DNA of 63,847 nucleotides, filler included, from Vermamoeba vermiformis (Eukaryota), in NCBI GenBank assembly GCA_045837725.1. It is 4 parts of 4 records of this genome, joined end to end, with 100 filler letters (N's around TTAATTAATTAA, not from the genome) between each part and the next. Parts side by side here need not be neighbours in the genome. Positions count along the whole stretch, not along the records: positions 28,456 to 55,348 come from JBEWZL010000042.1; 3 more parts are not named here. One strand, 5' to 3'. The position numbers and the translations under genes are program-made. Positions 30,491 to 55,304 of this stretch are shown here, piece by piece. Position 1 is the stretch's first letter; each line of letters begins with the position of its first letter. A model generated the notes under the pieces. That model had not been told where the DNA came from, ran no database searches, and saw nothing but the letters and a program-made list of their open reading frames with translations.

Positions 30491-30742
30491 TTAAGCCTTA
30501 TTATCATTCATATCATGTGCAGCTGTCTCTCTATCACATCGCTTCTCAAGTTGAATTGTAAACCAGTCAATTCCTTCTTGCAGACCCGTGCCGACTGTCG
30601 CACTACTCGCTTGAAGGTGCCACAGACGATTGGTCATAGAGCGAAGCTCTAATTTATCTATTATTTCATCTTCCGTCATTGCGTTGGGCAGATCCACTTT
30701 GTTCGCAAAGACCAAGAGCGGCACTGTCTCATCTGGCCCTGC
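30491..30742 (-). pseudogene. 3' part of an ARF/ARL-family small GTPase gene interrupted by the viral element (5' part at 55305-55348)
   Basis: [33 protein letters not shown]...[20 protein letters not shown] carries the ARF G4 NKxD and G5 motifs; the right flank reads TESAEELKKELSYAG in the same frame. Confidence 0.88.
30738..30742 (+). repeat. target-site duplication, left copy (CCTGC)
   Basis: CCTGC immediately precedes TGAAAA at 30743 and recurs at 55305-55309 right after TTTTCA. Confidence 0.93.
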
Positions 30743-30921
30743 TGAAAACGGCTTAGCCCTAGAACGATATCGGCCAGAATAACGAGGTATAATACTACTG
30801 AAATGCGGGTATCCGCACTGCTCGTATATACGAGCGATTTCATATAGGGAAAAACCGCCGCCATAACCTGCTAATTTTTCGTATGGATTGGTCATGGTAT
30901 TATTCGCCTCAGCCGTTTTCA
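30743..30921 (+). repeat. left terminal direct repeat (179 bp, TG...CA)
   Basis: TGAAAACGGCTTAG...CTCAGCCGTTTTCA; 11-bp perfect (13/14) terminal inverted repeat; identical to 55126-55304. Confidence 0.97.
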
Positions 30922-30964: not shown

Positions 30965-32203
30965 ATGTCCACTAACCAACGAATATACAATAGGGCCCAG
31001 CTCGCACTGGCCAAGAACTTCATACAAGGCCACCGAGACCTGCGACTACTGGCGGCCCTCCCCGTGTCCTCTCGCTATGCATTCGCTCACAAGTATGCAA
31101 ATACAATAGTGAGACCCGATGGTAAATTGGCAGAGGTAATAGACGGTAAGGCCTACGAGATTGTACCACGAGAAGATGTTGACGATGTCATCAAGGAACT
31201 TTATGCCTCGACTCAGTTCGGCCGAGACAAGCTCTATGAGACTTACATCAAGCCAAGACTATTGGGAGTATCGCGACAAGATGTGGCCCGTGTCATTTCA
31301 GCCGAATACACACAGCAAGTTCATCGAGTTGTCCCAAAGAAGTACTCGCATGTGGCCAGCATAAGAGCGACACGACCACTGGAACGCTGGATGGAGGATG
31401 TGACGATGCTCCGAGAATCAGACAGGCAAAAGATCTTCATCATCAGTATGGTTGACTGCTTTTCGAAGTACGCGTGGGCCAAGCTAGTGACCAAAGCAAA
31501 GACAGCGAGACATGGTGCAGGCTTGCGAGGCGTGACATCCCAAGACATTGCCAATTTCCTTCGTGGTATCGTTCGTCAGGACTTTAAGCCCTCAGTCCTG
31601 CATACAGACAATGGTAACGAGAACACAGGCGCCCCAGTCAACGATGTCTGTCGTGAGTTTGGCATCAAGAGAGCGTATGGGTCGGTGTATCAAAGCAGGA
31701 GTCAAGGACAAGTTGAAAGATTTCAAAGAACGATCAAGTCAATGATCTTCAAGAAGTTCACATTCACCGACAATGAAACCTTCAACAATCAAGAACTCCA
31801 GCGTCTCGTGCGAAACTACAACGAGAGCTGGCATGCCACTACTGGACGCATCCCAATTGAAATTATGAAGTTCTCGAATGAAGACCGCAACCCTCGAGGA
31901 GTCACCAAGGCTGCTGACAAGATCATCGAACAAGCGGACAAATACAAACAAAAATTCGCCATGACAGCCAAGGCGATTCCAAGAGAAGCCAAGGTCAGAC
32001 TCGCGTTGAGTGTGCTTAACCCGAAGTTACTGAAGCAAGAGAGGAAGGGGTATCTTCAACAATGGTCCGATACAATCTACACCGTCAAGGTCAGGACGAA
32101 AGGAAAGAACTCATTGGTCTATTATCTAGTCGAAGACGAGAATGGTCGTCCATTGAATAAACGACTTTACCGCAACCAACTTCAACCAATCGTCACGAAC
32201 TAA
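30965..32203 (+). CDS. retroviral-like (rve/DDE) integrase, Polinton type
   Basis: WMEDVT...MVDCFSKYAWA...VLHTDNGNE...QGQVERFQRTIK (D-D-E); C-term KGYLQQWSDTIYTV...YLVEDENGRPLNKRLYRNQLQ resembles Polinton integrases; no intact HHCC. Confidence 0.92.
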   Translation: MSTNQRIYNRAQLALAKNFIQGHRDLRLLAALPVSSRYAFAHKYANTIVRPDGKLAEVIDGKAYEIVPREDVDDVIKELYASTQFGRDKLYETYIKPRLLGVSRQDVARVISAEYTQQVHRVVPKKYSHVASIRATRPLERWMEDVTMLRESDRQKIFIISMVDCFSKYAWAKLVTKAKTARHGAGLRGVTSQDIANFLRGIVRQDFKPSVLHTDNGNENTGAPVNDVCREFGIKRAYGSVYQSRSQGQVERFQRTIKSMIFKKFTFTDNETFNNQELQRLVRNYNESWHATTGRIPIEIMKFSNEDRNPRGVTKAADKIIEQADKYKQKFAMTAKAIPREAKVRLALSVLNPKLLKQERKGYLQQWSDTIYTVKVRTKGKNSLVYYLVEDENGRPLNKRLYRNQLQPIVTN

Positions 32204-38228: not shown

Positions 38229-40829
38229 ATGGCCTCAGAAAACAATCTTGGTTCCGTCGCGAAGAAATTAGCAGTTATGGGTATTGTCTGTCTTCCGCTC
38301 TCTAGACATGACAAGCACGGCCACGGAAAAGCCCCAATGCCTGAGAAGTGGCAAAACTTCACCGTCCAAAAGGCTATTGAATTCGATTGGTCCAAGGCCA
38401 CGAACATCGGTATCTTGACTGGTCCTTCTTCGGGAATTGTCTGCCTTGATATTGATGTCGAAGATAGTGGATTCGAACTGTTCGCTGAGTACGAGAGGAA
38501 ATTCGGCAAGCTTGTTGGTCGGTACCCTCGACAAAACACTGGTCGAAAAGGTTTGCACATCTTCGGCAAGAATGACCCGCGTTTCAAAAGTAGGTCGAAG
38601 ATCATCATTGATGGTGTTGAGCATGGCTTGGACATGAAGGCCAAGGGAGGCCAAGCCGTCATCGAGCCTAGCGTTAACTGTGTTTCCGGTGGTAAGTACG
38701 AGTGGGTCGAAGGCCATTCCTTGTTCGACTACTACAAGGATGAATCCAAGCCATTGCACGAACAAATCGATGCCTTCCCTGAAAGCTTGATTGAATTCAT
38801 GGTCACTCGCAAGTACAAGCGCGGCCCCGACGGAAATTTGATTCCCACTGCAGAAGCTAAGCGCACAAGAGCGAAGAAAAATCCGCAATTTCCTGGTGAA
38901 CCTGCTACGGAAAAGGTTAGCGCTTCCATCGTCGTTCCTTCTTTCTCTGGTGAGACACGTACCGTCGACCTCCAAAAAGAAAAGAAACTTATCAACCTTA
39001 GACCGCCTACTATCGAGCAAATCGAAATGATTCTTCGGTACTTGAGCACAGAGCGGTTGATGAACTACGATGAGTACATCTCTATCATCGGAAGTTTGTT
39101 CCATGCTACCGAGCACGATGAATCGTTGAACCTGAAAACCCGTGAGTTGGTCAAGGACTGGATTCGCGTTCACTACGTTGGTGAGTACGATCCTCACTGG
39201 CATGACGACAAATGGAATTCCTTGGTTCGCGAGAATGCTGGGTCTGAGAACGCACACTTCGGTTCACTGATTGAGAAGGCTCGCATCGACTCCCCAGGAT
39301 TCGACGATGAGTTTGAGGTCAATCGCAAAGTCATTTGGGGCGCTTACACTGACGAGGAGTTGATCGAGCTTGGTATCAAACCCAAGAGACCTGCGATTAT
39401 GAAGTACCTGACATGTAATCAGTTCGACCATGCGGATGCCTTCGTCGAGTTCAACAAGAGTGATGTCGTGGTGAAGGACAAGAACGAGTGCTACATTTGG
39501 GACGATGCCAAAAAGCTCTGGAAGCAGGGTGATCACATCTCATTGATTGACAAAATTGGCAGGTACTTGTTGAAAATGATCGCTGAATGCGAAGCTGCTA
39601 ACGATAAGTGGAAATTCGGTGTCCCCGAGGCTCAGTTTAGCCTGATCGAAGGAAAAGTTCAGATGGTTTGTTGGGCGGGCAATGTATCAAGGGTTGTCAT
39701 CGCGCGCATGAGACCTCTCGCTGAAGACATCAAGTTCGATAACGGCGGCGGCAACGAACACTTCCTCCCAATCAAGGGTGGTAGAGTCGTCGACCTTCGC
39801 ACTGGCGAGGTTCGTGAGCGTAGAAAGACAGACTACTTCACCATCGAATGCCCTGTCGAAATCGAAACGGACAAGGACCGAAACGCTATCGCGAAGAAGT
39901 TCGTGTTAGACATTTGCCGTGGTGACGAGGAGCTTATGTCTTACTTACAGAAATGCTTGGGCTACATGCTTACTGGTGACACGAGTGCACAGTCCTACTT
40001 CATTATGCATGGTCGCGGTGCTAACGGCAAGTCAGCCCTATTCGACTGTATGCAAGCGGTCTTGGGTGGGTTCTACACGCAAGTAAGCAAGACACTGATG
40101 CTCTCGTTGAAAGACAGTGCAGGTCGCGCCACACCCGAGCTCATGACTCTCGAGGGCAAGCGATGTGCCATCTACACGGAACTCAACGTCAGTGACACTA
40201 TCTGCGATGGTATGGTCAAGAAGCTTACCGGCGAGAAATCAACTGTCGGTCGCAAACTGTACGGCGAAGAGCGAGAACTGCCCTTGTTCGCCAAGCTCTC
40301 ATTCTTGACTAACCACAAGCCCAAGGTCAAGATGGACTTTGCCATGAAGCGCCGCACCAAGTTCATCCCATACAAAGGCCACTTCGCCAGCCGTGACGAT
40401 CCTGAGTTCGTACCGGGCGTTAGTTACGAAAAGAACGTTCCGTTGGTCAACAGTATGCTTACCGAGAATCTCAGCGCGTTCGCAACTTGGCTGGTCGAGG
40501 GAGCACAACGCTATTACGCTGAGGGCATTGACAAGCTGCCTGCGATCGTTGCCGAGGAATTGGCAAGTTACGTGGAGGAGTGTAACGAGTACGACACTCT
40601 CCAACAGTTCCTCGATGAGTCTGGCCGTGTCACGAGACTCCCGACCGACGAAGTTCAGGCCACGAAGCTACTGGCCGAGTACACACTCTGGTGTAATGGC
40701 CAACACCTCAAGCCAATGAAATCAAATGAGTTCTACGGCAAGCTCACCGAAAAAGGCTACACGAAGCGAAAGAGTCACGGTGTCATGGTGTACACCGGCC
40801 TTGGCCTGAAGTCGCGCGACGACCTGTAA
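38229..40829 (+). CDS. bifunctional primase-polymerase (Prim-Pol) fused to D5-like superfamily 3 helicase
   Basis: GKAP...NIGILTG..GIVCLDID...TGRKGLHIF (Prim-Pol); PriCT-like NYDEYISIIGSL; VVDLRTGEVR (D5_N); Walker A HGRGANGKS; KKLTGE...RKLY; TNHKP...MKRR. Confidence 0.92.
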   Translation: MASENNLGSVAKKLAVMGIVCLPLSRHDKHGHGKAPMPEKWQNFTVQKAIEFDWSKATNIGILTGPSSGIVCLDIDVEDSGFELFAEYERKFGKLVGRYPRQNTGRKGLHIFGKNDPRFKSRSKIIIDGVEHGLDMKAKGGQAVIEPSVNCVSGGKYEWVEGHSLFDYYKDESKPLHEQIDAFPESLIEFMVTRKYKRGPDGNLIPTAEAKRTRAKKNPQFPGEPATEKVSASIVVPSFSGETRTVDLQKEKKLINLRPPTIEQIEMILRYLSTERLMNYDEYISIIGSLFHATEHDESLNLKTRELVKDWIRVHYVGEYDPHWHDDKWNSLVRENAGSENAHFGSLIEKARIDSPGFDDEFEVNRKVIWGAYTDEELIELGIKPKRPAIMKYLTCNQFDHADAFVEFNKSDVVVKDKNECYIWDDAKKLWKQGDHISLIDKIGRYLLKMIAECEAANDKWKFGVPEAQFSLIEGKVQMVCWAGNVSRVVIARMRPLAEDIKFDNGGGNEHFLPIKGGRVVDLRTGEVRERRKTDYFTIECPVEIETDKDRNAIAKKFVLDICRGDEELMSYLQKCLGYMLTGDTSAQSYFIMHGRGANGKSALFDCMQAVLGGFYTQVSKTLMLSLKDSAGRATPELMTLEGKRCAIYTELNVSDTICDGMVKKLTGEKSTVGRKLYGEERELPLFAKLSFLTNHKPKVKMDFAMKRRTKFIPYKGHFASRDDPEFVPGVSYEKNVPLVNSMLTENLSAFATWLVEGAQRYYAEGIDKLPAIVAEELASYVEECNEYDTLQQFLDESGRVTRLPTDEVQATKLLAEYTLWCNGQHLKPMKSNEFYGKLTEKGYTKRKSHGVMVYTGLGLKSRDDL

Positions 40830-40854: not shown

Positions 40855-41165
40855 CCTAGGGCTTGCTTATTTTTATCTAGTGGGGAGGGCTTGGGGAGCC
40901 CCTAATTATTACGATTTATGCGAGGGTACCGATAAAAATATCTAGCGGGGGAGGCCGGGGAGACGGGGGAGGCATTGCAAACAGTATTTCCGTATACGCC
41001 CGTACACGTGCGTGGTGGCGCGTGGAATGAGCAGTGTGATGATTGATTTTCTGATATATACTTTTGACTAGGTCTCCCCCCCTCCCCGGCCTCCCCCGCT
41101 AGATAAAAATAAGTGAAGCCTAGATATACAAGGGCCTCCCCAAGCCTCCCCCGCCCTCCCCCGTT
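40855..41165. repeat. GC-rich nested inverted-repeat/iteron region, candidate replication origin
   Basis: Five GGGGAG on + followed by six CTCCCC; perfect 24-bp inverted repeat 40939-40962/41082-41105. Confidence 0.6.
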
Positions 41166-42078: not shown

Positions 42079-42296
42079 ACTCGCAAATACAAAAAGAACG
42101 CCGCGAGACCATTCTCGGTTCGGAGAGTGGTAGGCACCGGTCTGGGGAGACTGGAGCCCGTCAGTGCGACTCGCTCGGAGTTAATCTGATGTACGCGGTG
42201 GAAATCAAAACAAACAAAAACAACCAAAACTAAAAAGAAATAAACCTGAGTTGGGGTGCGGGGTTGGAGTAGGCGGCGAGCCAAGCGGGTGAGAGT

Positions 42297-42584
42297 TCAG
42301 AAGTCCTCAAAGTCAAGGTCGAGCAAGGCTTGAAGTTCGTCCCGGGGAACGATGCCGTGAGCAAGGTAGTCGTGTCCGAATAAATCTCGAAGCAAACTGT
42401 CGCTGACGACACCGGAGTCAATATCAGAAATCAAGTCAACAACTTGCTGACGGGAAAGAAAGGTTTCGGACTCGCCAACAACGCAACAAAGAGCAGAGAA
42501 GTCGAAATCCTCGTCGTCAACTTCAGGTAGGAAGAAAGAGAAGGTGTTATGAGGAGCGGTGAGAGTACTGTTGGGTTTAGGCAT
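42297..42584 (-). CDS. small acidic hypothetical protein
   Basis: 95 aa; shares a duplicated upstream motif with the next gene. Confidence 0.55.
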   Translation of the reverse strand: MPKPNSTLTAPHNTFSFFLPEVDDEDFDFSALCCVVGESETFLSRQQVVDLISDIDSGVVSDSLLRDLFGHDYLAHGIVPRDELQALLDLDFEDF

Positions 42585-42634
42585 TTGCTCGTGTATAAAA
42601 GGCCAAAACGAAAAAATAGCCGTTCATAAATCGC

Positions 42635-43246
42635 TCAATCGCGCGAGGGTAGCTTGACGCCAATGATCTCATCGTAGAGCTTATTGCAATTGACCTCCAA
42701 TGAGTCTTTGTTGGTGATGAATTCGGTGAGCTTGGACGTGATGTCCTCGCCAAGGGACTCAATCACATCCCTGCTCATTGCGGCAATAGTGTTAGCGAGA
42801 ATACCAGTAGCGAGAAGACCGGCGGAAGTGTTGCGTGCTTTGATGAGTTGGACGAGGTACTGACGAAGGAACTTAAGATAGTCATTGAAAGGAAGGACGA
42901 TTTGGAAAGAAGGAATGATCATGGACATAGCTAAGACTTCGTGCTCAGTAGGAGCATCGGGTTTGTTAAGCGAGGAAACAACTTGGTTTATCTTACGGTA
43001 TTCGTCAGGGTGCATACGTTCAGGGAACCGCAGGTAACATTCAACACCTACAAAGCTAGTCATAGCATGTGGCACATGACGGGCAAGCTCTGCGACTCTT
43101 ACCAAGTCGTTGTATGTCCTCGACTGCTGGTATAATTGCCAGGCGGCTTTGAACTGGTCAAATTTCGAAAGGTCGCCAGTAAACATCTGCGTCAATCCTG
43201 AGGATTGCGCGAAATCCTTCGCCTTTTGAATGTGTGCGTCCATCAC
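42635..43246 (-). CDS. helical hypothetical protein (probable paralog of 44392-44973)
   Basis: FKAAWQLYQQS / VECYLRFPE / PTEHEVLAM align with the paralog. Confidence 0.65.
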   Translation of the reverse strand: MMDAHIQKAKDFAQSSGLTQMFTGDLSKFDQFKAAWQLYQQSRTYNDLVRVAELARHVPHAMTSFVGVECYLRFPERMHPDEYRKINQVVSSLNKPDAPTEHEVLAMSMIIPSFQIVLPFNDYLKFLRQYLVQLIKARNTSAGLLATGILANTIAAMSRDVIESLGEDITSKLTEFITNKDSLEVNCNKLYDEIIGVKLPSRD

Positions 43247-43633
43247 TGAAGTCTATACAAAGGCCCAAACGAAAATATAGCCGTTCATAAATTGTGTGTC
43301 TTTTCATGCCACAATCGCCTGGACAAAAAGAAGGCCAAGGTCAGGTAAATGCCGTTCATGGCCGAGAAGGGCCGAAGTCCTTTAATAAAGGATAATCGGC
43401 CTATGATCGTGAGTCCTGGGCAAAATGAGGGCCGCACAAGTGATGGCAATCAGGACAATGACTAACTGCACGCACCACGAGTTGTATGGGCCTTTCGTTG
43501 AGAGTAAAGTCGGTTTGATTCTTTCGAGTAACCTTCGGTCGAGTGGCACGCAACCACTGTCGTGTGTCTTCAATCCAATCACTCATCTGCTGATTTGTGT
43601 CCAATATTTTGTGTCAGTATATATACAGTAAAG

Positions 43634-44329
43634 ATGGAATACACACCGAGTGAAAGAGCGCTAGAGCTGCTCAGAAAGATTGGGGAAGCAATGGGATTAA
43701 AAGATGCCTCTCCGTTCCTTGATGCGTTGAAACAAATCGCGAATAACGCACGCCCTGGCGTAGCGCTTACTGAAGAGGTAGCAATCGAAATTCTTGAGGG
43801 TATCTTGGCACAAACGACGACACCTGAATTGAGACGCGTCGCGGAGTACAGGGAAAAGCAAAAAAAAGACCCTTTGCACGCACTTAAATCGAAGCCACCA
43901 ATAGTTGGTTACTTTTGCAAGATGTACGAAGAATTCGAACGCGATGAACGTGTGCCAATACCACCGTCGATTAACTACAGGAAGCACAAAGGATACGTAT
44001 GCATGAACGTTGGCGTGTCACCGGACGAGAGATTTATGAAAAAATATTTGAAGACACCAGCACATCATCCAGTCTACAGCTACGTACTACTATGGAAGCA
44101 ATTGGCAGATGTAATTGGTTGTCGCGATTTATGGTCTCCTCTTAGAAATGCCTACAAGGACTTGGTTAGCTGCGATTGTGGTCGTGTATGCATGACTGGG
44201 ACATGTATCAGATGTCGCACACTGTTGACACCGACAGATCTGATGATTATCGCTGGATTCCGCCAACCGAGATTTCTATTTAGCATTGAGGACCGTAGCT
44301 TTCTTTCCAGAGAGGAAGAGCAAAAATAA
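43634..44329 (+). CDS. hypothetical protein with C-terminal CxC..CxxC motif
   Basis: 231 aa from MEYTPSE; CDCGRVCMTGTCIRC. Confidence 0.65.
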   Translation: MEYTPSERALELLRKIGEAMGLKDASPFLDALKQIANNARPGVALTEEVAIEILEGILAQTTTPELRRVAEYREKQKKDPLHALKSKPPIVGYFCKMYEEFERDERVPIPPSINYRKHKGYVCMNVGVSPDERFMKKYLKTPAHHPVYSYVLLWKQLADVIGCRDLWSPLRNAYKDLVSCDCGRVCMTGTCIRCRTLLTPTDLMIIAGFRQPRFLFSIEDRSFLSREEEQK

Positions 44330-44391
44330 AGGGTCGCTTATTTTTTAGTCGGACGTTATGTCTATTGATTTTTTACCACTGTGTATACAAG

Positions 44392-44973
44392 ATGGAAAAG
44401 TTACGCGAAGAAGCTCCGGAACTAAACCTGCTGTTACCAGAAGCCTTCAAAATGAGCGAGTTCAAGAAGGACTACGCAGAGTATAAAATGTCAATGAATG
44501 TTGAAAAGTTCCAGGCATTGGCAGCAAAATACCAGTTAGGCACAACACCAGTGCATGTAATGATGATCCTACTCATCGAAGCGAACATTCGATATCCAGA
44601 CATAGTTGATGAGAAGACAAAAGAAAGCTACGAAATTTCAACCAGATGGTTGAAAGAGGAAAGTCTGACAGAACAAGACTTCGCTTGTATGCTAATGACG
44701 TACGGAGCAATTTGGTCGGTAACGCACGATGTACAAACGTTGAAGAGTGCAGTAATCAAATGCGCCAAAGCAATGGAAACGGCATTGGACAAGCGTGTGA
44801 AGAATGCGATAATGACGATATTGGCCGGAATTTCTGAGTTGATAAAAGCCGCTAAATTAGAGGCTCACTTCTCAAGTGATACCTTGGACGAACTGCGAAA
44901 AGTAGCCCAGACAATGTACCATGAGAGAGGAGAGGAGGTGAGCGATGCTTTGATGGAGTACATGAGCCAATAA
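44392..44973 (+). CDS. helical hypothetical protein (probable paralog of 42635-43246)
   Basis: FKKDYAEYKMS / IEANIRYPD / LTEQDFACM. Confidence 0.65.
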   Translation: MEKLREEAPELNLLLPEAFKMSEFKKDYAEYKMSMNVEKFQALAAKYQLGTTPVHVMMILLIEANIRYPDIVDEKTKESYEISTRWLKEESLTEQDFACMLMTYGAIWSVTHDVQTLKSAVIKCAKAMETALDKRVKNAIMTILAGISELIKAAKLEAHFSSDTLDELRKVAQTMYHERGEEVSDALMEYMSQ

Positions 44974-44988
44974 AAAACAAAGGGTCAC

Positions 44989-45816
44989 TTATTTTTTCGT
45001 CAGTCTTCGCCTTGGTCTTGGTCTCACTGTCGATGTCCCTCTTGGCATTGGTGTCACGGGCTCTTCGTATTGCTCGATACCGTACACATCACCATCCTGC
45101 TGATTCTCGTAGGCATTCTCGTTCGATAGATTGAAATTGAGCTTGACGTGGGGATTGGGCAGTGGAGCCTTGAAACGCTTGAACTTCTTGTCGAGCGTGT
45201 TCTCAGCCTTCTGAAGCCAACACAGTGCGTTGTAGTCTTGACATGAATTTAACAGGAAGCGGTGCCATTTTTTCTCGTCATCAAAGAAGCCCGAACCAAT
45301 GGTCTCATAAAGGGCTTTGCTAGACTTCTGCTTGGTGCAACCCAATACGAAGATATGACTGGCGCACTCTCTGATAGTTGGTGTAATTTTGTAGATGTAC
45401 TGAGTGACGATAAAAACACTAAGGAACCAGTGGCGGTAAGTGGTGGCGAGTTTGTCGAAGATTGGCTTGTGGAAACCAGCGGCGCCAATACAATCATCGA
45501 GGACCAGAGCGACATGCGGGGCACGTGTAATTTGACGAGACTCCATCATCTTGCGCAGCTTGGCTTGCATGGCAAGGATTCTCATCAGTTTTTTCTCGTT
45601 GTAAGTGCCCATGCGAAACTCACGAGGCAACCAGTCATACTCACCGTTGACTTCAGCGGTAGGACTGAAGAGATAGATGAAGTCGATCATGCCGGCATTG
45701 TACATGGCTTGCAGGAGATAAGTCGTTAAGACCGTTTTGCCTGAGCCAGGAGAGGCACTAAGCAGAATAAGATTTTCGCGGTTCAACCACGATAGTGCTC
45801 CGTTAGTGTGCTGCAT
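44989..45816 (-). CDS. A32-like (FtsK-HerA) genome packaging ATPase
   Basis: Walker A SASPGSGKT, IYLFSPT, Walker B VALVLDDC, arginine-finger region TYRHWFLSVFIVTQY..ITPTIR. Confidence 0.9.
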   Translation of the reverse strand: MQHTNGALSWLNRENLILLSASPGSGKTVLTTYLLQAMYNAGMIDFIYLFSPTAEVNGEYDWLPREFRMGTYNEKKLMRILAMQAKLRKMMESRQITRAPHVALVLDDCIGAAGFHKPIFDKLATTYRHWFLSVFIVTQYIYKITPTIRECASHIFVLGCTKQKSSKALYETIGSGFFDDEKKWHRFLLNSCQDYNALCWLQKAENTLDKKFKRFKAPLPNPHVKLNFNLSNENAYENQQDGDVYGIEQYEEPVTPMPRGTSTVRPRPRRRLTKK

Positions 45817-45848
45817 AATTTTGCGTATACTATAGAGAGAAGATAATA

Positions 45849-46247
45849 ATGCCAAGCGACGCTAGCTATTATAACTACTGTTGGATCGTGAAGACGCGAA
45901 AGCCATTCAGCAAAGAAGAGGCGGTCAAGGGTGCCATTGCAGTGAACAACGCAATCACCCAACATGCAGATTCTTGGTGTCAGTTCAAGGTTCCAAGGAC
46001 GGAGCAAAATGTCAGGCGTTGCGAATGGGAATCGGCGGTTGGCAAGGACATTAGTGACGAACTAGTGTTCTTGATATATTTGAGGACGTGTTGCAAGCCA
46101 GGTCAAACAACTCAACCGCAACGACATGAGGTGAAGAAAGTAATGCAAGAATTATTCCCAGGTTCTTATATATCACCAGCTGAGAGACTAGCAGCGAAAA
46201 AATACGATATTAAGTGGGTAGCAGACAAAGCGAAGATAACCATATGA
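45849..46247 (+). CDS. hypothetical viral protein
   Basis: 132 aa; stop overlaps the next ATG (ATGA). Confidence 0.6.
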   Translation: MPSDASYYNYCWIVKTRKPFSKEEAVKGAIAVNNAITQHADSWCQFKVPRTEQNVRRCEWESAVGKDISDELVFLIYLRTCCKPGQTTQPQRHEVKKVMQELFPGSYISPAERLAAKKYDIKWVADKAKITI

Positions 46248-46735
46248 GTCGAGCAACTGAAACAGACTGGATTCGTGTCGACCCATCACTGGACCCAGGT
46301 AGAGCGAATGTAAAGTCGAACACGAAAGTGCGTGACACAATAATCTATGTGACATTCTCGATCAACACGCCAGTGAAACGAGACAGTCCGTACGCCATTG
46401 AGCTTACCAAAAAACTGTACCAAGCCACTGCGAATTTGGGACAGATGTTCGAAGATTACGATGATAGTGTGGTTCAATTCACTGAAGGATCTCAATCGGA
46501 TGTTGTCTCATTCGTGCCTCAAGGAACTGTTGAATATGGCTTCAATAACAACTACATCCATCTACATGCTGTCTTCCACTGGAAGCATAGAGCGAACATG
46601 AAAATAAAAATCGATGGGATTCGAAAGGTACTCAACGAGGCAAATCCAGATGGGAACAATCATCTTGATGTTCGCTTCGTCAAACCGAGCAGTCTTGATT
46701 GGTACTTGCAAAAGACGCTCAATGGACCGCAGTAA
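46244..46735 (+). CDS. single-domain HUH (rolling-circle Rep-like) endonuclease
   Basis: Motif I VTFSINT, motif II VEYG...IHLHAVF, motif III WYLQK (YxxK) in the correct order within 163 aa. Confidence 0.75.
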   Translation: MSRATETDWIRVDPSLDPGRANVKSNTKVRDTIIYVTFSINTPVKRDSPYAIELTKKLYQATANLGQMFEDYDDSVVQFTEGSQSDVVSFVPQGTVEYGFNNNYIHLHAVFHWKHRANMKIKIDGIRKVLNEANPDGNNHLDVRFVKPSSLDWYLQKTLNGPQ

Positions 46736-46773
46736 GGCCTGTCTCTTTTTTTCTAAGGGCCTATAGTATAGTC

Positions 46774-47478
46774 ATGACGACAGCAACTTGGTTGAAATCG
46801 AGCTTGTTGAGCGATGAAGATCTCGCTCAAATCACTAAGCGACCAACGAAAAAGATTGATGGACCAACGCCAACACCAGCTCCAACTGAACAAAAGAAAG
46901 AGATCGAGACTCCTGCTCCAATTCAAGTGAAAGAAGAAAAAGTCTCAGCGCCGACTCGCGGGAAAAAGGATAGTGGCAATGTTCCAGTTCTCAAGAGCGA
47001 ACAACTGCCACCGATAACGACGATTCAAACACCAGTGATAAGCAGAACGCAGCAAATGCCTGAAGAGTTCGAAGACATTGACGATGATGTGCCATCCTTT
47101 GGCAACCTCCAACAACAGACAACACCATCACCTGCAAATTTCCGTCAACCCTCTACCCAGGCAATTAAACAACGAATCCCTCGACCACCGTCACCCACTC
47201 CCCCAGTACCTCGCCGAAGTATTCAAAGAGTTCCAATGAGAACTTCACCAAGACCTCAATTGAGAGCGCAACCTCGTCCAAGACCGCTTGAAGTGTACGA
47301 AGAAGAGGAGTACGATGAAGTTGAGGAAGAAGAGAAAGGAGGCTTCTTGTCAATGATCGATAGCAAAATGATGATAGTTGGAGGCATAGCTATCGGAGTT
47401 GGATTACTGAACTTCTTCTCGAGTGGGAATAAGCAAGGAGAGGATGCAAATGTCCAATATGGCCGAGTCTTCAAGTAA
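46774..47478 (+). CDS. Pro-rich disordered protein with C-terminal TM anchor
   Basis: Pro/Arg-rich, acidic tract, MMIVGGIAIGVGLLNFF. Confidence 0.7.
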   Translation: MTTATWLKSSLLSDEDLAQITKRPTKKIDGPTPTPAPTEQKKEIETPAPIQVKEEKVSAPTRGKKDSGNVPVLKSEQLPPITTIQTPVISRTQQMPEEFEDIDDDVPSFGNLQQQTTPSPANFRQPSTQAIKQRIPRPPSPTPPVPRRSIQRVPMRTSPRPQLRAQPRPRPLEVYEEEEYDEVEEEEKGGFLSMIDSKMMIVGGIAIGVGLLNFFSSGNKQGEDANVQYGRVFK

Positions 47479-47514
47479 AGCGCATAACTTTTTTTCATTC
47501 TTATAGCCACCAAG

Positions 47515-47820
47515 ATGTCCACCATATCAACAGACACGCACAAGATAAAAAAATTCTCGAGGTCACGAGGCGACATCAAGTACTCTCTCACTTGCCACGA
47601 AGTAGAGGCAGAGCAAGGTAACGCACGAAAGGTTAGTAGATATGTTGATCTCTGTGTAGATTCCATTATTAAGATCGAAGGTTTGAACAGTGACCAATTC
47701 CGATGTCTAGAAGACTTAGTTCGTTCAGCTAGGGAATATTTCCTAGCGCCTACGAAGCACTTCGCTGCAGGCGATGACTTTGGCATGCTCTCGGCCAGTA
47801 GCTTGACCCTTGAGGATTAA
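47515..47820 (+). CDS. hypothetical viral protein
   Basis: 101 aa with element-type upstream motif. Confidence 0.55.
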   Translation: MSTISTDTHKIKKFSRSRGDIKYSLTCHEVEAEQGNARKVSRYVDLCVDSIIKIEGLNSDQFRCLEDLVRSAREYFLAPTKHFAAGDDFGMLSASSLTLED

Positions 47821-47882
47821 AGACCCAAACCGTTTTTTGACGAGTCATATACAGGTGACTGCCAAACGGAGCCCGCTACCAG

Positions 47883-48296
47883 ATGATCATCGAAGCCTTG
47901 ATCGCAATAACGATCGTGCTACTTGCCAACATCACCATCCAACTCCTGCGAATTCAAAATGCTCTTCGAGACTTGTCGACGAAGCAATATGAGAAAACAC
48001 AGTCAAAGCCTACTGAGAACGATCAACAAGCCATCGATGCTCGGTTTGCCAAGCAACTTCAACAAAATTTTACAGACCGTGTCAGGTCGTATGCAGCAGC
48101 AAGACTGCCGTGGTACAAACGCCCAGTCCTCAATGTTCTCACTTTCAAAATGATCAAGATAAAATATCTAGAGGCTAAGCAGAGTGGCAATGACTTGCGA
48201 CAAATGCTCATAGGTATTGGAATGCAAGACTCTGCTCAATTTGCGAAGGACATAGCCCAGTACGAGGGGGTGTTGCAGAGATTGTTGGAGTTGTGA
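47883..48296 (+). CDS. hypothetical protein with N-terminal TM segment
   Basis: MIIEALIAITIVLLANITIQLL. Confidence 0.6.
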   Translation: MIIEALIAITIVLLANITIQLLRIQNALRDLSTKQYEKTQSKPTENDQQAIDARFAKQLQQNFTDRVRSYAAARLPWYKRPVLNVLTFKMIKIKYLEAKQSGNDLRQMLIGIGMQDSAQFAKDIAQYEGVLQRLLEL

Positions 48297-48343
48297 AAAC
48301 TTTTTTATTTTGGAATTATAGCACATTCTTGACAAACGCAAAA

Positions 48344-49627
48344 ATGGCCACCTCGAAGACTCACTTCATGGAGAATTGGAAGCAAAGCGCTTCTGTTCTT
48401 CCAGCCCCCGGCGAGAATTTCTCGAATTGGGCTGACTTGGCTTATACCCATGTGAAGGGCGCCGATGGTATGACTCGCTTAATGCCGGAAAATGCAATGC
48501 ACGAGCGCATCACCAACTCTGCAATGTACACCTACTTTCCTGCCAATTCTGGTGGATCGGGAGCCGTAGGCAATAATACCTTCGTCTTCAACATCCCACA
48601 AGGTTCAGTGATCGACTGTGAAGATGTCCTTCTCTACGCCACCGTTACCGAAACGGGAGGTACCAATAACATTGTCTATGCACCGATGGATTTGTGGCTT
48701 CAACGTGTTAACATCGCTTTCAATGGTGGATCGCAGGACATGATGCAATTTCAATTCGCGAATGTTTACTTGCACAACTGGATGAGCCGATACAACGAAG
48801 GTTGGCAAAAATATTCAGCATTGAACAACGCTTCATCAACCTCTCCCATTACTACACCGGCCACTTTGGCTGCTGGTGCTTCCGCTAACTGGGCAATCAG
48901 CATCCCTTCCTTGCTCAGTCAAGCCTCGATCTTCTTCAAGGACCTGAAAGGAGACATAGTGATCACAGTGCAAACATTGCCTTTGGCTAACATCACAGTA
49001 AGTGGAACTGGTGTTGGTGCACTTAGCAATGTGCAGCTCGTTCTCAAACAAAAGGATGCCCTTGATTCTGAGCTAAACCGCAAGTATCGCTTGATGCAAG
49101 AGTATCCCTTGTACGCCAGATATACTGACGGGCTGTACCAAAGTTTCCTCGGTTCCACATTGACTGCCTCAAGCACTCAGTCATTCCAACTTTCCGGTGT
49201 TAACGGCCTTGTACCATGGCTTATCTACACCATTCGCCCTAGCTCACTCGTAGGTGCGAATCTGTACACCTTCTCTTCGCTCGGCCCCAACGGCACCGTC
49301 GATGTAAAATCGGGTGCAGGCTACACGATCTTGGGTAGTGGTAATGTTCCCGAGTTCATCCTCAAGCTGAAGTCCGCTGATGATTGGCCCTCTGGTTTCT
49401 TCTCTACAACCAACGTTGGCTTGATCAACTTCTGCGCTGAACCCTCGAAAACTTGGAAGACTGGAGAACTCACTGGTGGATACTGCTTCGATAATAACCA
49501 CTTCCTTGTTCTCACACCTGGCGCTACCTTCTCATCTGGCACCTACTCGCTAGAAATCTATGGTGTCCGCTCGCAATTGATGAGACTCGACAAAAACGGA
49601 ATTGCAACAAAGTTGGGAGCCATCTAA
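48344..49627 (+). CDS. putative double-jelly-roll major capsid protein
   Basis: 427 aa, beta-strand-rich (FVFNIPQGSVIDCEDVLLYAT, WAISIPSLL..IFFKDLKGDIVITV); immediately upstream of the penton-like gene in an element with an A32 ATPase; fold inferred, not shown. Confidence 0.72.
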   Translation: MATSKTHFMENWKQSASVLPAPGENFSNWADLAYTHVKGADGMTRLMPENAMHERITNSAMYTYFPANSGGSGAVGNNTFVFNIPQGSVIDCEDVLLYATVTETGGTNNIVYAPMDLWLQRVNIAFNGGSQDMMQFQFANVYLHNWMSRYNEGWQKYSALNNASSTSPITTPATLAAGASANWAISIPSLLSQASIFFKDLKGDIVITVQTLPLANITVSGTGVGALSNVQLVLKQKDALDSELNRKYRLMQEYPLYARYTDGLYQSFLGSTLTASSTQSFQLSGVNGLVPWLIYTIRPSSLVGANLYTFSSLGPNGTVDVKSGAGYTILGSGNVPEFILKLKSADDWPSGFFSTTNVGLINFCAEPSKTWKTGELTGGYCFDNNHFLVLTPGATFSSGTYSLEIYGVRSQLMRLDKNGIATKLGAI

Positions 49628-49707
49628 AGTCTTCAAAAAAAGACCACTTCACTGATCGAACCCATATTTTTTGTCGTCAATTATAGGCAGCCCGCTAGCA
49701 TTCAACG

Positions 49708-50481: not shown

Positions 50482-50515
50482 GCACCATTGCTAATTTTTT
50501 AGTGGTATTATAGCC

Positions 50516-50879: not shown

Positions 50880-53507
50880 ATGGATAAGGCACAAGTCCGT
50901 AGAAAGAACGCTTTGAACTCGAATGCCTTGGGCAACGGGTCAACTACCCAAATTACCTACAACATTACTCCGGGCAGTGGATTGCCCATCTCGTACAGTG
51001 GTCCAACAGCCACTTCGCCTGCAATTCAACTCAACGTGACTGGTGACACAAACAACCGTTGGGTTTTGAATGTATCAGGCACGCAGACCTTCAGTGACGG
51101 TACCGGAACTGCAGCGAACACCGTTATTTTGGCGTACAAAGGGAGTGGTTCAGAGCTCCAAGTGCAGGACTCCACTGGTGCGGTTCTTGGCACTATCAAT
51201 GCAGGAAAGTTCATTTCCTTAGCGCAAACAGCAACGAACACTCGGGTCTTCGAAGTCGCGTTGTCCACCGATTCATTCCGTCGCTTGTTCGCAACTGCTG
51301 GCGGAAAGCTCGGAGTAGGCACAGGCACGTCCAGTTCTGTTCAAGTCCTTGGCATCAACTCGACTTCTGGCTACATGACCCTTGCTAATACCGAATCGGC
51401 CGAAACAGGAGGTGATTTTCGATCGGACAACCTCACTGGTAATGTGCAGGTAAGTACACCGTTGATTGTGACATCGGCTGGAGATCTGACCATTACGCCA
51501 GCTGGTAGCAATGTGAAGTTGAGTGGAAAAAATTTGAATAACTTCGCGACGGCAACGGCCACCACCAGTCTTGTCACACCACTGCTTACCTCTGCATCTG
51601 GCGACCTCAATATCAGCAGTGCGGGTACCAACGTCAACCTGAGCGGAAAGACACTCAAAAATGTCCCTGTCATCGATGCAAGTGTCGCGGGCTCTCTGCA
51701 AATCTCAGGTGGCTTCGTGAACATGCTGTTGAATGATATTCGCGCTGCAAACAGCATCACGGCCAACTCACTGACGTCCCCCTTGATCAACACAACGAGT
51801 GGCAATCTTGTTCTCAATCCTACTGGAAGTGCCGTTGACTTCAGTGGTAAGCAAATCATCAATGCAATCTTACCATCGAGCGGGCTTACATTCCCTATCA
51901 GTTACACGTCACCCAATGGAACGAATAAATTTCTGTTCGTCAATCAAACTGGGGATAGTTACGAGCGATGGGCTGTCGACGCAAGTGGCATGCAGACCTT
52001 TGGCCCAGGCAGTGCCTCGATAGCAAACGATGTTTGGTTTTACCGTACTAATGTTGGTGAACTTCTCATCAGTGGTCAACCTCCATCGAACGGCGTGAAA
52101 AATGGAGCTTTGGCCGTGAACACCATTCGAGGTGTAGATGGCTTGAGCTTCAATGTTGCTGGCGACATATTGCTCAACCCGAGCGGTGTGGTCAATGTCA
52201 ACGGAAAGACCCTACAGAATGGTGTATTGACTTATGCCAACAACACCGTAGTCAGCACGTTCATATCGTCACGCATAGTTGGAGATACATACGACCGAGT
52301 TCAAATCGACAACCAAGGCTTCATCTACTTCGGTGGTGGTACAGCAACCCCAGACATCTCCTTCTCGCGTCAGGATGCGAACACACTCAGAGTCAATGGT
52401 GGGTTAGGTTTCTCGCGAGGTAATTTGCGTTTCGACACGGCGTATTCGAACAACATCACCAGCAACACGTTCAATTACGTGAATGTTTGCGCCTCTGGTT
52501 CAACAAATGGCACTGGTACGAACAACACATCGATATCCACCACCGGTGCTGATTTCAGTTTGGGCACCAATCGAAGTACCGCAATTAGCAGTGGTTCGAT
52601 CTCTTTCGGTGCTGGTAATTCATGTGCTTCGGTCGGAAGTGCCGCCACTTCATTCGGTTCTGGCAGTAACAATGTCTCGATAGCTAATACGGCCTGTACC
52701 ATGGGATCCACACAATACAGCACCATCATGAGTTCGACGAACGGCACCATCACGGCAACATCAGGCTGTAATATGATACTTGGTTCTGGTAACGGCAACA
52801 CTTCGATTACTGGCACGGCAGGAGGAACATTATTGTGGGGCTCGTACATCTCAACCAACAATGCAAATGTCTTCGGTGTGTCAGACTCAAGTTCTACAGC
52901 CGTTTCTGTCGGGACCTCAAAGACATTTTACGGTCGCATGAGCGGGGGGTACTATCTCGCTACTAACGCAGCAGCGAGCACTGGAATGCAGTTAAGTGGT
53001 GGTTCATCATCGTGGGGTGCGATTAGTGACGCTCGATTGAAGCGCATTCACGATGAAGTTCGTGTCTTGGACAAGGTTGAGAAACTTCGAGTTGTTCGCT
53101 ACAACTACAAGTCTGATGAGGAACATGAGGAGCCACGTCTTGGTATGATCGCGCAAGATGTCAACACTCTCTATGCTGATTTGGGAGTGCGTCGCAACTA
53201 CTCGCTCAACCACCCAGAGAGCAAAGAGGGTGATCCAATCCAAACGGTCTCCGGCGATGAGATTGCTTACTTGTCACTGGCCGCAATCAAAGAGCTCAAG
53301 GTGGAGGTCGAGAGTCTTCGCAGTGAGAATGCAAACCTTCGACACGCCAGCGATCAATTGCACAACGAAATCGATCGTTTGACTGTCGCGCATTCGTCGC
53401 TTGAATCGAAGTACGATGCGCTTGCAGACGAGACTCGAAAGCTCAGAGACGGCCTCGCTAAAGTGATGAATGTCCTCAGAAGTGCAAAGCCAACAGACAA
53501 AAAATAA
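50880..53507 (+). CDS. fibre/spike protein with C-terminal peptidase S74 intramolecular chaperone and coiled coil
   Basis: Gly/Ser/Thr/Asn-rich repeats; SDARLK...LDKVEKLRVVRYNYK...LGMIAQDV...LAAIKELK. Confidence 0.82.
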   Translation: MDKAQVRRKNALNSNALGNGSTTQITYNITPGSGLPISYSGPTATSPAIQLNVTGDTNNRWVLNVSGTQTFSDGTGTAANTVILAYKGSGSELQVQDSTGAVLGTINAGKFISLAQTATNTRVFEVALSTDSFRRLFATAGGKLGVGTGTSSSVQVLGINSTSGYMTLANTESAETGGDFRSDNLTGNVQVSTPLIVTSAGDLTITPAGSNVKLSGKNLNNFATATATTSLVTPLLTSASGDLNISSAGTNVNLSGKTLKNVPVIDASVAGSLQISGGFVNMLLNDIRAANSITANSLTSPLINTTSGNLVLNPTGSAVDFSGKQIINAILPSSGLTFPISYTSPNGTNKFLFVNQTGDSYERWAVDASGMQTFGPGSASIANDVWFYRTNVGELLISGQPPSNGVKNGALAVNTIRGVDGLSFNVAGDILLNPSGVVNVNGKTLQNGVLTYANNTVVSTFISSRIVGDTYDRVQIDNQGFIYFGGGTATPDISFSRQDANTLRVNGGLGFSRGNLRFDTAYSNNITSNTFNYVNVCASGSTNGTGTNNTSISTTGADFSLGTNRSTAISSGSISFGAGNSCASVGSAATSFGSGSNNVSIANTACTMGSTQYSTIMSSTNGTITATSGCNMILGSGNGNTSITGTAGGTLLWGSYISTNNANVFGVSDSSSTAVSVGTSKTFYGRMSGGYYLATNAAASTGMQLSGGSSSWGAISDARLKRIHDEVRVLDKVEKLRVVRYNYKSDEEHEEPRLGMIAQDVNTLYADLGVRRNYSLNHPESKEGDPIQTVSGDEIAYLSLAAIKELKVEVESLRSENANLRHASDQLHNEIDRLTVAHSSLESKYDALADETRKLRDGLAKVMNVLRSAKPTDKK

Positions 53508-55125: not shown

Positions 55126-55304
55126 TGAAAACGGCTTAGCCCTAGAACGATATCGGCCAGAATAACGAGGTATAATACTACTGAAATGCGGGTATCCGCA
55201 CTGCTCGTATATACGAGCGATTTCATATAGGGAAAAACCGCCGCCATAACCTGCTAATTTTTCGTATGGATTGGTCATGGTATTATTCGCCTCAGCCGTT
55301 TTCA
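55126..55304 (+). repeat. right terminal direct repeat (179 bp, TG...CA)
   Basis: Base-for-base identical to 30743-30921 by eye. Confidence 0.97.

Follow-up and report, generated by a model that had tools for sequence, protein, structure and literature searches.

A putative stand-alone HUH endonuclease with mriyavirus-type relatives in an integrase-bearing provirus of Vermamoeba vermiformis

On the evidence of its sequence, the open reading frame at positions 46244..46735 (+) very probably encodes an HUH endonuclease of the Rep class with a single tyrosine, which is short, stand-alone and devoid of a helicase domain. The enzyme is probably active. Its gene resides on a 24.6-kb provirus (30743-55304) integrated in an Arf-family gene of the host, Vermamoeba vermiformis. 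We favor, with moderate confidence, the explanation that a mriyavirus-type HUH enzyme serves synthesis of the rolling-circle type in this polymerase-less provirus, and initiation of rolling-circle replication appears to be its likeliest role. Below, the window denotes the whole stretch of 63,847 nucleotides that was analyzed.

Translation of 46244-46735 gave a protein of 163 aa without an internal stop, and the three motifs that the first-pass annotation had read in the canonical order of Rep proteins were all recovered. Motif I (VTFSINT, residues 36-42) is encoded at 46349..46369 (+) and includes T37 and N41. The segment VEYG...IHLHAVF comprises residues 96-111, with HLH (residues 106-108) at 46559-46567; the stretch 46532..46576 (+) covers E97 and motif II (IHLHAVF with H106 and H108), as judged by alignment and model. 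E97, located nine residues before the HUH, is a candidate third metal ligand and may thus contribute to metal binding. Motif III (WYLQK, residues 153-157) is encoded at 46700..46714 (+) and contains the candidate catalytic tyrosine Y154 with K157 alongside. The annotated overlap of the start codon with the preceding stop codon was also found: in the sequence ATGA (46244-46247), the ATG occupies 46244-46246 and the TGA of the upstream ORF 46245-46247. This ORF (45849..46247, +; 132 aa) is without a Pfam match. Within the window, one out of 356 ORFs (stop-to-stop, at least 60 aa), namely the HUH ORF, disclosed the arrangement motif I...HUH...YxxK with matching spacing. In 200 residue shuffles of all these ORFs, the strict pattern yielded 0 matches per set and a loose pattern 0.015. 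A coincidence of motifs was ruled out by the fact that the residues are conserved across relatives.

By these searches, relatives of the HUH ORF appear to be rare. Among 1.84e9 representatives, phmmer detected nine matches at E<=1e-3, six of which were full-length (24-30% identity, best E 1.7e-7). The relatives have lengths of 156-293 aa and lack a helicase domain, and a length-unrestricted phmmer search of the 1.84e9 representatives revealed no credible fusion of an HUH domain to an SF3 helicase. A word-based homologue search gave no match with the protein itself and three proteins only with the family profile. IMG/VR scans using the protein, one family alignment, two further protein queries and the ATPase of the element remained without a match, and one further family alignment matched a single IMG/VR locus. 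Metagenome scans with the protein and one further protein query gave no match. For the ATPase, the capsid candidate and the HUH ORF of the element, neither the IMG/VR nor the metagenome collection yielded a close relative.

Beyond M1, the sole residues invariant in 9/9 complete relatives were T37, N41, E97, H106, H108, H115, Y154 and K157. The histidines and the tyrosine had been set as the point at which the annotation could fail, if they varied in homologs. H106 and H108, together with T37, N41, E97 and H115, were unchanged in 15/15 aligned sequences, and Y154 was kept wherever an aligned sequence extends to its column. The residues correspond to the features of the Rep class: T37/N41 represent the pattern uuTuxuN on the first strand (motif I), H106-L-H108 a His-hydrophobic-His on a modelled beta strand (motif II), and Y154/K157 the Yx2-3K on a helix C-terminal to the HUH (motif III). 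The relaxase (Mob) class was rejected since Y154, the only conserved tyrosine, lies C-terminal to the HUH, whereas the relaxase tyrosine lies N-terminal to it. An IS200/IS605 Y1 transposase was rejected as well, because the protein had no Pfam match (E<=10) and Y1_Tnp was absent from the nine families matched by seven family members.

Reps of CRESS-DNA viruses carry the motif I/HUH/YxxK signature with an acidic residue nine positions before the first histidine. The protein resembles such geminivirus-type Reps in its motif I, HUH and YxxK, and several of them were among the listed matches in BFVD. However, in CRESS Reps the HUH domain and an SF3 helicase form one protein, which replicates ssDNA circles of 2-6 kb, whereas here the nuclease stands alone and the SF3 helicase lies 5.4 kb upstream in a fusion with a primase. 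A CRESS-type Rep was therefore rejected for this 163-aa protein, which contains no SF3 helicase domain of its own.

A relationship to mriyaviruses emerged from profile comparisons. According to the available text of Yutin et al. (2024, mBio, PMC11253617), all mriyaviruses encode a stand-alone HUH endonuclease, which gave 96.7% in HHpred to SIRV1 Rep. Our family profile was aligned by hhalign to a family of mriyavirus-type ORFs, "mriyavirus-type" being assigned by the contig gene set as described in the available text of that paper, with a probability of 98.0 and E 1.9e-13; the alignment extends over 128 columns and spans motifs I to III. A profile built without the mriyavirus-type sequences matched one ORF in each of eight IMG/VR loci (E 6e-16 to 3e-11 among 2115 ORFs), the next match having an E of 3.3. 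Besides VLTF3 and A32, one of the matched contigs encodes an NCLDV-type capsid protein and a YqaJ/PDDEXK nuclease; the ids of the matched contigs do not occur in the main text of PMC11253617. Y154 and K157 were kept in 4/4 mriyavirus-type ORFs extending to the C-terminus. These alignments argue for significant homology of the HUH ORF to stand-alone HUH ORFs that are mriyavirus-type by contig gene set.

Like the mriyavirus enzyme described in PMC11253617, the protein is stand-alone and possesses motifs I, II and Yx2-3K. The setting described there is likewise that of a small NCLDV-related dsDNA genome with a primase/SF3 helicase, an A32 ATPase and no DNA polymerase. On the other hand, the HUH ORF (163 aa) lacks an N-terminal extension compared to the 215-250 aa of the mriyavirus-type ORFs, to which it is 15-18% identical. 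The ATPase of the element is 27-29% identical to ATPases of mriyavirus-like contigs, and no other protein of the element resembles their ORFs. Moreover, the element is integrated and has an rve integrase, while the available text of PMC11253617 contains 0 mentions of an integrase. Mriyaviricetes are characterized there by VLTF3, a PDDEXK/YqaJ nuclease, Mriya_48/50/51 and genomes of 35-45 kb without an integrase. Membership of the element in this class was rejected on account of its 24.6 kb, the presence of rve and the lack of a Pfam match to VLTF3 or YqaJ/PDDEXK in the 26 element ORFs scanned.

As far as described in the available text of a preprint (bioRxiv 10.64898/2026.06.19.733378), the groups "Zoravirus" (VC102) and VC218 comprise mriyavirus-like genomes of 20-30 kb with an NCLDV/mriyavirus-related capsid module. 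An rve integrase was reported there in 57-62% of the genomes and HUH in about half (VC102) or 28% (VC218) of them, and complete elements are flanked by direct or inverted repeats. The element fits VC102/VC218 by this description only, with its 24.6 kb, rve, HUH and direct repeats. Thus, by the available texts, a stand-alone HUH enzyme together with a primase-helicase and without PolB has been in print since 2024 (PMC11253617), and HUH in rve-bearing relatives of 20-30 kb has already been reported in the preprint of June 2026 (bioRxiv 10.64898/2026.06.19.733378).

The evidence on the fold of the protein is weaker. AlphaFold models with a pLDDT of 79.7 and 81.1 exhibited the topology beta-alpha-beta-beta-beta-beta-alpha-beta-alpha, in which motif I is on strand 1 (30-40), the HUH on the strand 105-115, adjoined by the strand 87-98 with E97 at its end, and the tyrosine on the last helix (148-159). 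Of the 50 matches listed in BFVD, 13 were named Rep, replicase or parvovirus NS, a count with a high base rate since Rep proteins are very common in this database. A rudivirus replication protein was among these 13, and it and an SIRV3 protein were listed at TM 0.43-0.45. By contrast, the first 50 ranks of the two PDB Foldseek searches contained neither 2x3g nor any other solved HUH structure. The top matches were MoaC, DapE, PII/CutA and ribosomal proteins, generic alpha/beta sandwiches with E>=1e-4 and TM<=0.43. In the structure check proposed in the first-pass annotation, the topology and the matches to viral Rep models were in favor of an HUH fold and the first 50 PDB ranks were not. Sequence and profile searches of the PDB gave no match even at E<=10.

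Curated families gave a similar picture. The HUH-ORF protein itself had neither a Pfam (E<=10) nor a PHROG match. A sub-threshold match to PF23343 (Rep ORF2/G2P) recurred in five out of eight family members with 12-20.1 bits (best E 7.8e-4); none reached the gathering threshold of 27.8 bits, 20.1 being the best. It always covered the stretch from the HUH to YxxK (profile positions 33-98), and PF23343 was the sole named family in the Atlas feature matches (13/30). The resemblance to PF23343, as judged by sequence, probably holds at the superfamily level only. An alignment of seven rudivirus Reps anchored on PDB 2x3g gave a weak hhalign match (probability 2.9, P 0.015), in which motifs I and II were in register over 77 columns. 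Rudivirus Rep was located by help of SIRV2 ORF119c, which matches 2x3g at 9.7e-72; in the SIRV1 record AJ414696 no ORF is called 119, and Rep was not picked out there by family profile or regular expression.

These data bear on the possibility that the ORF encodes a small conserved viral protein of generic ferredoxin-like alpha/beta fold which is no nuclease but, for instance, binds DNA or belongs to the virion. The alpha/beta sandwiches without an HUH enzyme at PDB ranks 1-50, the lack of a curated family above threshold and the placement of the gene among structural genes would agree with it. We consider it quite unlikely, however, because at 15-30% identity the invariant residues are the HUH metal-binding and Tyr/Lys positions in the right order and lie on the expected secondary-structure elements of the model. 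Furthermore, the sub-threshold Pfam and the Atlas signals agree on one Rep family, and the ORF is significantly homologous to its mriyavirus-type counterpart.

We also determined the boundaries of the element. It is flanked by two direct, LTR-like terminal repeats of 179 bp (30743..30921 and 55126..55304, both +), which are 100% identical, begin with TG, terminate with CA and have 11-nt inverted ends; only these two copies of the repeat exist in the window. A target-site duplication of 5 bp (CCTGC) adjoins them at 30738..30742 and 55305-55309. The insertion cuts the gene of an Arf-family GTPase, the C-terminal part of which is located at 30494..30742 (-; PF00025, E 9.4e-15, profile positions 115-171 of 174). 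When the empty site is read through, a single open frame of this host gene is restored. An rve integrase of the retroviral DDE type is encoded next to the left repeat (30965..32203, +; PF00665, E 9.1e-11).

The ends also bear on a transposase-type HUH enzyme (IS200/IS605 Y1, IS91, or Helitron/Replitron-like) that would move the whole element or part of it as ssDNA, independently of the rve integrase. HUH Reps have been recruited as transposases repeatedly, and the element is integrated. Yet the TG...CA ends and the 5-bp duplication are hallmarks of DDE/rve enzymes that HUH transposition does not produce, Y1_Tnp gave no Pfam match, and the window contains one HUH copy and two repeat copies. This explanation is extremely unlikely.

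Pfam matches bore out the context given in the first-pass annotation, i.e., an rve integrase, a Prim-Pol/SF3 helicase and no PolB, for which no family matched in the 26 element ORFs scanned. The fusion of a Prim-Pol (AEP) primase with a D5-type SF3 helicase is located at 38229..40829 (+; PF09250, 3.6e-16; PF19263, 1.4e-7; D5_N, 1.1e-3). Its helicase part matches ASFV C962R (7.1e-6), and its primase domain retains catalytic-looking DxD, H and D residues. It is presumably the unwinding partner of the HUH enzyme. An A32-type DNA-packaging ATPase (44989..45855, -; PF04665, 3.6e-8) showed no match to phages by tblastn. Downstream of the HUH gene, a candidate double-jelly-roll major capsid protein is encoded at 48344..49627 (+). 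It rests on Atlas feature matches (score 0.98 to clusters carrying Capsid_N/Capsid_NCLDV), had no Pfam, PDB or word-search match and is regarded as a lead. A fibre-like protein (50880..53507, +) possesses a C-terminal Peptidase_S74 intramolecular chaperone domain (PF13884, 3e-11); this gene and the primase-helicase are the only element ORFs above 450 aa. The HUH gene shares a block on the + strand with the capsid and fibre genes, away from the primase-helicase.

Integration, capsid, rve integrase, A32 ATPase and a short target duplication are common to the element and to Polintons/Mavericks and classical polinton-like viruses (PLVs). With 24.6 kb, the element is also of PLV size. Unlike Polintons/Mavericks, the element has no protein-primed PolB but an HUH nuclease. 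Membership in Polintons/Mavericks was rejected, since rve is present but a PolB match is missing in the 26 element ORFs scanned and the termini are direct repeats rather than long inverted ones.

A candidate origin of replication was found in a non-coding region at 40856..41161. It harbors GGGGAGG iterons in an inverted arrangement, three on the + and five on the - strand, which account for 8/10 GGGGAGG sites of the window. Folded as ssDNA, it had a z of -8.47, and 0/100 shuffles were as stable. Its function as an origin is suggested by these features. For mriyavirus HUH enzymes, replication initiation of the rolling-circle type has been inferred in print, as stated in the available text of PMC11253617. 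In the element, a divalent metal would be held by E97, H106 and H108, and Y154 would cut one strand at the viral origin and remain covalently attached to the 5' end. The free 3'-OH would then prime strand-displacement synthesis of the rolling-circle type by a host polymerase, the viral SF3 helicase unwinding the DNA meanwhile. Multimers would be cut to unit length with a terminal redundancy of 179 bp and packaged by the A32 ATPase, and the TG...CA ends of the redundancy would be the substrate of the rve integrase. Two candidate nick sites may be considered: the iteron-rich inverted-repeat region 40856-41161 and a palindrome in the terminal repeats. The latter, a perfect 16-nt palindrome, is situated at 30820-30835 in the left copy, and the 179-bp repeat folds better than 199/200 shuffles (z -3.24).

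The second site touches on another role of an active HUH nuclease, i.e., processing of ends at the 179-bp repeats, bulk replication being started by the primase-helicase. The nuclease could rescue a copy from the provirus by starting at one repeat and stopping at the other, resolve concatemer junctions, or regenerate the redundancy before packaging. Identical direct repeats with a palindrome and a stable fold would suit this role, as would the position of the HUH gene beside the capsid and fibre genes rather than the primase-helicase. With AEP residues that look intact, replication may proceed mainly by priming. Rudivirus Rep (SIRV1 ORF119, PDB 2x3g; 119 aa) is likewise a small stand-alone HUH protein with a single tyrosine from a dsDNA virus, and it works at the termini of a linear genome. 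Its motif I (F-x-T-I-x-T-N) is followed, in the same order as here, by the HUH and by a Y-x-x-K-like motif near the C-terminus; it differs in host domain (archaea) and genome type, and the profile link is weak. In the available text of PMC11253617, it is named as the closest solved relative. However, there is no defined nick-site motif, and the palindrome may have its use in transcription or for the integrase. The iterons at 40856-41161, which are the strongest candidate for an origin, are far from the repeats, and the homologous enzymes have been interpreted in print as replication initiators. We therefore regard end processing as rather unlikely and retain rolling-circle initiation as the preferred role.

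Sequence reads were inspected for replicative forms. In one short-read DNA run, neither a circle nor a concatemer of the element was detected, the unitig graph being compatible with a two-repeat provirus and with a solo repeat plus circle alike. Unitig depth of the element was 263-293 and that of the flank junctions 327-334; since the former is not above the latter, there was no sign of episomal amplification. A stand-alone HUH gene in an integrase-bearing capsid element is supported, as first annotated, and the step to rolling-circle replication of an excised circle by a host polymerase is reasonable but still presumptive. From three RNA runs of other samples with the same species label, 18, 22 and 6 reads mapped to the stretch, each of them only in part and with overhanging A/T runs. 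Positions 44710-50694 had no coverage at all, and no transcript was observed; as these samples may or may not carry the element, the reads say nothing on expression.

The HUH enzyme and the LTR-like repeats may also be read jointly as a counterpart of the retroviral LTR cycle that involves DNA only, though we judge this unlikely. A nick would be set within the repeat, on or close to its palindrome (30820-30835), and synthesis would proceed from repeat to repeat. The nuclease would close the displaced strand to a one-repeat circle, leaving the provirus unexcised, and rolling-circle multimers would give rise to linear genomes whose duplicated TG...CA repeat ends are inserted by the rve integrase. 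If true, a capsid-forming DNA virus would pair Rep-mediated replicative rescue with integration in the style of retroviruses.

Irrespective of this joint reading, the element provides an endogenous, precisely bounded case for the recent claim of replication by an HUH enzyme, instead of a polymerase of their own, in small relatives of giant viruses. The claim is testable because the insertion site, the target duplication and the identical repeats are defined in a sequenced host. The HUH protein is small enough to be expressed, two candidate substrates are offered by the iteron region and by the palindrome of the repeat, and one defined locus is available for circles, concatemers and solo repeats. 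The termini are of interest as well. PLVs have long terminal inverted repeats, as stated in the available text of PMC12220804, whereas the element ends in direct repeats of 179 bp with inverted tips of 11 nt only. A retroviral-type integrase can thus act on a capsid virus with LTR-like direct ends instead of the inverted repeats usual for PLVs.

The open frame at 46244-46735 (plus strand) encodes P0001, a product of 163 residues in which VTFSINT (residues 36-42), VEYG...IHLHAVF (residues 96-111, including H106-L-H108) and WYLQK (residues 153-157) follow each other in the order of Rep motifs, as the first-pass annotation had proposed. Translation bore this out, and so did a regular expression for motif I, HUH and YxxK with comparable spacing, which matched only this one of the 356 stop-to-stop ORFs in the window. 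When the residues of all 356 ORFs were shuffled 200 times, the strict pattern gave 0 matches per set and the loose pattern 0.015. The proposed overlap with the preceding gene was also seen, the ATG at 46244 overlapping the TGA of an upstream ORF of 132 aa (45849-46247). A 22-nt repeat (46764-46785 and 50506-50527; 91% identical) lies over the start codons of two further ORFs, one located directly after the HUH gene and the other before the fibre gene, both starting with MTTA.

For P0001 no Pfam, PHROG or PDB sequence match was obtained even at E<=1​0, a word-indexed homologue search found nothing, and IMG/VR and the metagenome collection contained no close relative. When 1.84 billion cluster representatives were searched exhaustively with phmmer, nine proteins were recovered at E<=1e-3 (best 1.7e-7). 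Six of them (156-293 aa, 24-30% identity to P0001) aligned over nearly the whole length, while the other three, matching in short stretches and several pieces, were left out as probably spurious. A profile search added one more relative (P0011), a cluster look-up another (P0013) and a locus scan a third (P0012, the IMG/VR ORF L001:2347-2994). Besides the start Met, the alignment of nine sequences revealed T37, N41, E97, H106, H108, H115, Y154 and K157 as invariant. T37, N41, E97, H106, H108 and H115 remained so among 15 sequences, where Y154 was absent only from ORFs truncated by a locus end. Motif I, an acidic residue, the HUH motif and Yx2K are all required in an HUH Rep, and what each of them does is established for this superfamily (as cited: Chandler et al. 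2013); E97 is situated nine positions before the first His of HUH. Since the invariant positions are those needed by an HUH Rep, the conservation of His and Tyr in homologues, a check set by the first-pass annotation, did not refute the HUH reading. One relative, P0003, occurs on 7 contigs of up to 417,855 nt; thus, some members of the family reside in very large contigs, which belong either to a host genome or to a giant virus.

The only Pfam family that recurred was PF23343 (Rep ORF2/G2P), found in five of eight relatives and always placing the stretch from HUH to YxxK on profile positions 33-98, with every match under the curated cut-off (best 20.1 versus 27.8 bits). In a protein-language-model atlas (scores 0.95), 17 of 30 matches were unnamed, mostly viral clusters, and the other 13 were clusters with PF23343 in 14% of their members. 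Two AlphaFold models, based on 8 and 15 aligned sequences, reached mean pLDDT values of 79.7 and 81.1 and pTM values of 0.71 and 0.72, respectively. Both contain a strand at 30-40 (motif I), a helix at 49-70, strands at 77-81 and 87-98 (E97 at the end), 105-115 (HUH and H115) and 118-121, a helix at 123-131, a strand at 139-146 and a helix at 148-159 (Y154 and K157). The predicted arrangement is that of the Rep class, with the Tyr on a helix after the HUH motif. The best match in a BFVD fold search was an unnamed piece of 793 residues (E 6.6e-6, TMq 0.55); among the 50 matches listed, 13 were named as Rep, replicase, replication or parvovirus NS proteins, 27 were unnamed and 10 were other things. 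TM values of 0.43-0.45 were obtained there for a rudivirus replication protein and for a protein of SIRV3. Two PDB searches each disclosed no HUH enzyme among the matches listed (ranks 1-50), which were MoaC, DapE-type dimerisation domains, PII/CutA and ribosomal proteins (E>=1e-4, TM<=0.43). A profile comparison with a seven-member rudivirus Rep alignment anchored on 2x3g was weak (probability 2.9, P 0.015), but over its 77 columns motif I was aligned with motif I and motif II with motif II. Fold similarity thus gives no decision either way. The case for an HUH enzyme is built on the conserved residues and on the relationship by descent to the mriyavirus-type ORF described below. On these grounds P0001 is very probably a Rep-class HUH nuclease.

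The IMG/VR contig behind locus L001 carries a VLTF3 gene, which as bait yielded 34 IMG/VR loci. An HMM of the window's HUH family alone (A2), built without any IMG/VR sequence, matched one ORF in each of eight of these loci with E values of 6e-16 to 3e-11 (2115 ORFs), the next match being noise (E 3.3). Comparison of A2 with a profile of six of these ORFs (A6) gave a probability of 98.0 and an E value of 1.9e-13 over 128 columns, reaching from motif I to motif III. The ORF is located at 571-1296 (minus strand) of locus L015 and has equivalents in L001/L005, L004, L014, L016, L026, L036 and L011. On contigs where VLTF3, A32, YqaJ and a capsid gene of NCLDV type occur, its length is 215-250 aa, its distance from VLTF3 is about 9 kb, and it has no Pfam match at all. 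Genes for VLTF3, an A32 ATPase, a YqaJ/PDDEXK nuclease, a major capsid protein of NCLDV type and a lipase are found together on the L015 contig and correspond to the set described for mriyaviruses, all of which are stated to encode a stand-alone HUH endonuclease (PMC11253617). Judged by gene content and motif pattern, A6 probably represents this mriyavirus enzyme.

The window consists of four contigs with N...TTAATTAATTAA...N linkers between them (28356-28455, 55349-55448 and 61822-61921); adjacency across the linkers is meaningless. Within contig 28456-55348, a block of 47.2% G+C (left flank, 38.4%) is bounded by direct terminal repeats of 179 bp (30743-30921 and 55126-55304), which are 100% identical, start with TG, end with CA and have 11-nt inverted tips. 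Both are flanked by a 5-bp target duplication, CCTGC (repeat plus duplication, 30738-30921 and 55126-55309); a 4-bp duplication, CTGC, with a 180-bp repeat is a possible alternative reading. On its minus strand, the left flank codes for the C-terminal portion of a GTPase of the Arf family (PF00025, 9.4e-15), whose coding sequence is interrupted and whose frame stays open across the reconstructed empty site; so the element inserted into a eukaryotic gene. The neighboring contigs of the window contain no continuation of the Arf gene. The insertion bears a retroviral-type integrase signature. The element encodes an rve integrase (30965-32203), a Prim-Pol/D5 SF3 helicase (38229-40829) and a probable double-jelly-roll capsid protein (48344-49627; an atlas lead only), and its 26 scanned ORFs matched no PolB family. 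An A32 ATPase (44989-45855, minus strand) and a fibre bearing a chaperone domain of the S74 type are also present in the block. Two pairs of conserved AT-rich intergenic motifs of 34-37 nt (35590-35626/36192-36228, 86% identical; 42598-42631/43259-43292, 94% identical) adjoin minus-strand genes and may be shared viral promoter or terminator elements. A Cys-rich minus-strand ORF of 121 aa with weak zf-C3Hc3H/WRC-like matches contains an 87-nt internal duplication (36342-36428 and 36465-36551; 75% identical).

The combination of a stand-alone HUH endonuclease with a primase-helicase, without DNA polymerase, was already described for mriyaviruses in 2024 (PMC11253617). HUH genes in relatives of 20-30 kb appear in a preprint of June 2026, which reports rve integrases in 57-62% of the genomes of these groups and complete elements with direct or inverted repeats (10.64898/2026.06.19.733378). 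Polinton-like elements with an rve integrase do not usually end in direct repeats. For PLVs, inverted repeats and duplications of 5-6 bp have been described (PMC12220804); the ends studied here are direct and LTR-like. A description of such LTR-like ends (TG...CA with a 5-bp duplication) was not found in the available parts of the literature on these elements, and this feature is new. New as well are the precisely delimited endogenous copy within an Arf gene and the very divergent, short nuclease subfamily, of which public data contain few relatives. The finding itself holds up as real.

As to its role, the balance tips slightly towards P0001 as an initiator: the nuclease would start rolling-circle-type replication, with synthesis by the host polymerase and the viral SF3 helicase alongside. 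This prediction is consistent with the absence of a polymerase, with the terminal redundancy and with the way homologues are interpreted in the literature. Terminal redundancy is a product of concatemer maturation. A candidate origin is the non-coding region 40856-41161 (about 300 bp) downstream of the primase-helicase gene, which harbors eight of the window's ten GGGGAGG sites in inverted arrangement, three on one strand followed by five on the other, and whose cruciform-type fold is very stable, much more so than those of shuffles (z -8.47). Each terminal repeat contains a perfect 16-nt palindrome (30820-30835 and 55203-55218) beside a small GC hairpin; the palindrome may be a site for the nuclease or the integrase, or belong to a promoter. 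In the main rival explanation, the primase would start replication and the HUH nuclease would process ends or bring about rescue at the repeats. It is favored by the primase domain (38229-38900), which is apparently intact, with D-I-D (74-76), H110 and D135 at the positions expected for AEP catalytic motifs; therefore, primase and nuclease may both be active. This combination was called unusual in the work on mriyaviruses, in which the primase is reported to be mostly inactivated (PMC11253617).

DNA run X1, possibly the source of the assembly, was viewed over 35400-55348 of the window. Unitigs of the element had depths of 263-293, the 180-nt unitig of the repeat had a depth of 580, and those of the two host-repeat junctions reached 327-334; such depths are not equal to copy numbers. 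The element is not over-represented relative to its flanks, so this sample gave no sign of an amplifying episome. In the unitig graph the repeat is a single node that can be entered and left by two paths each, so that a two-repeat provirus looks the same as a solo host repeat plus a one-repeat circle; the window's contig follows the provirus path. The slightly higher flank depth could stem from some alleles with only a solo repeat or from composition bias. An Illumina-adapter chimera at 40198 breaks the X1 unitig.
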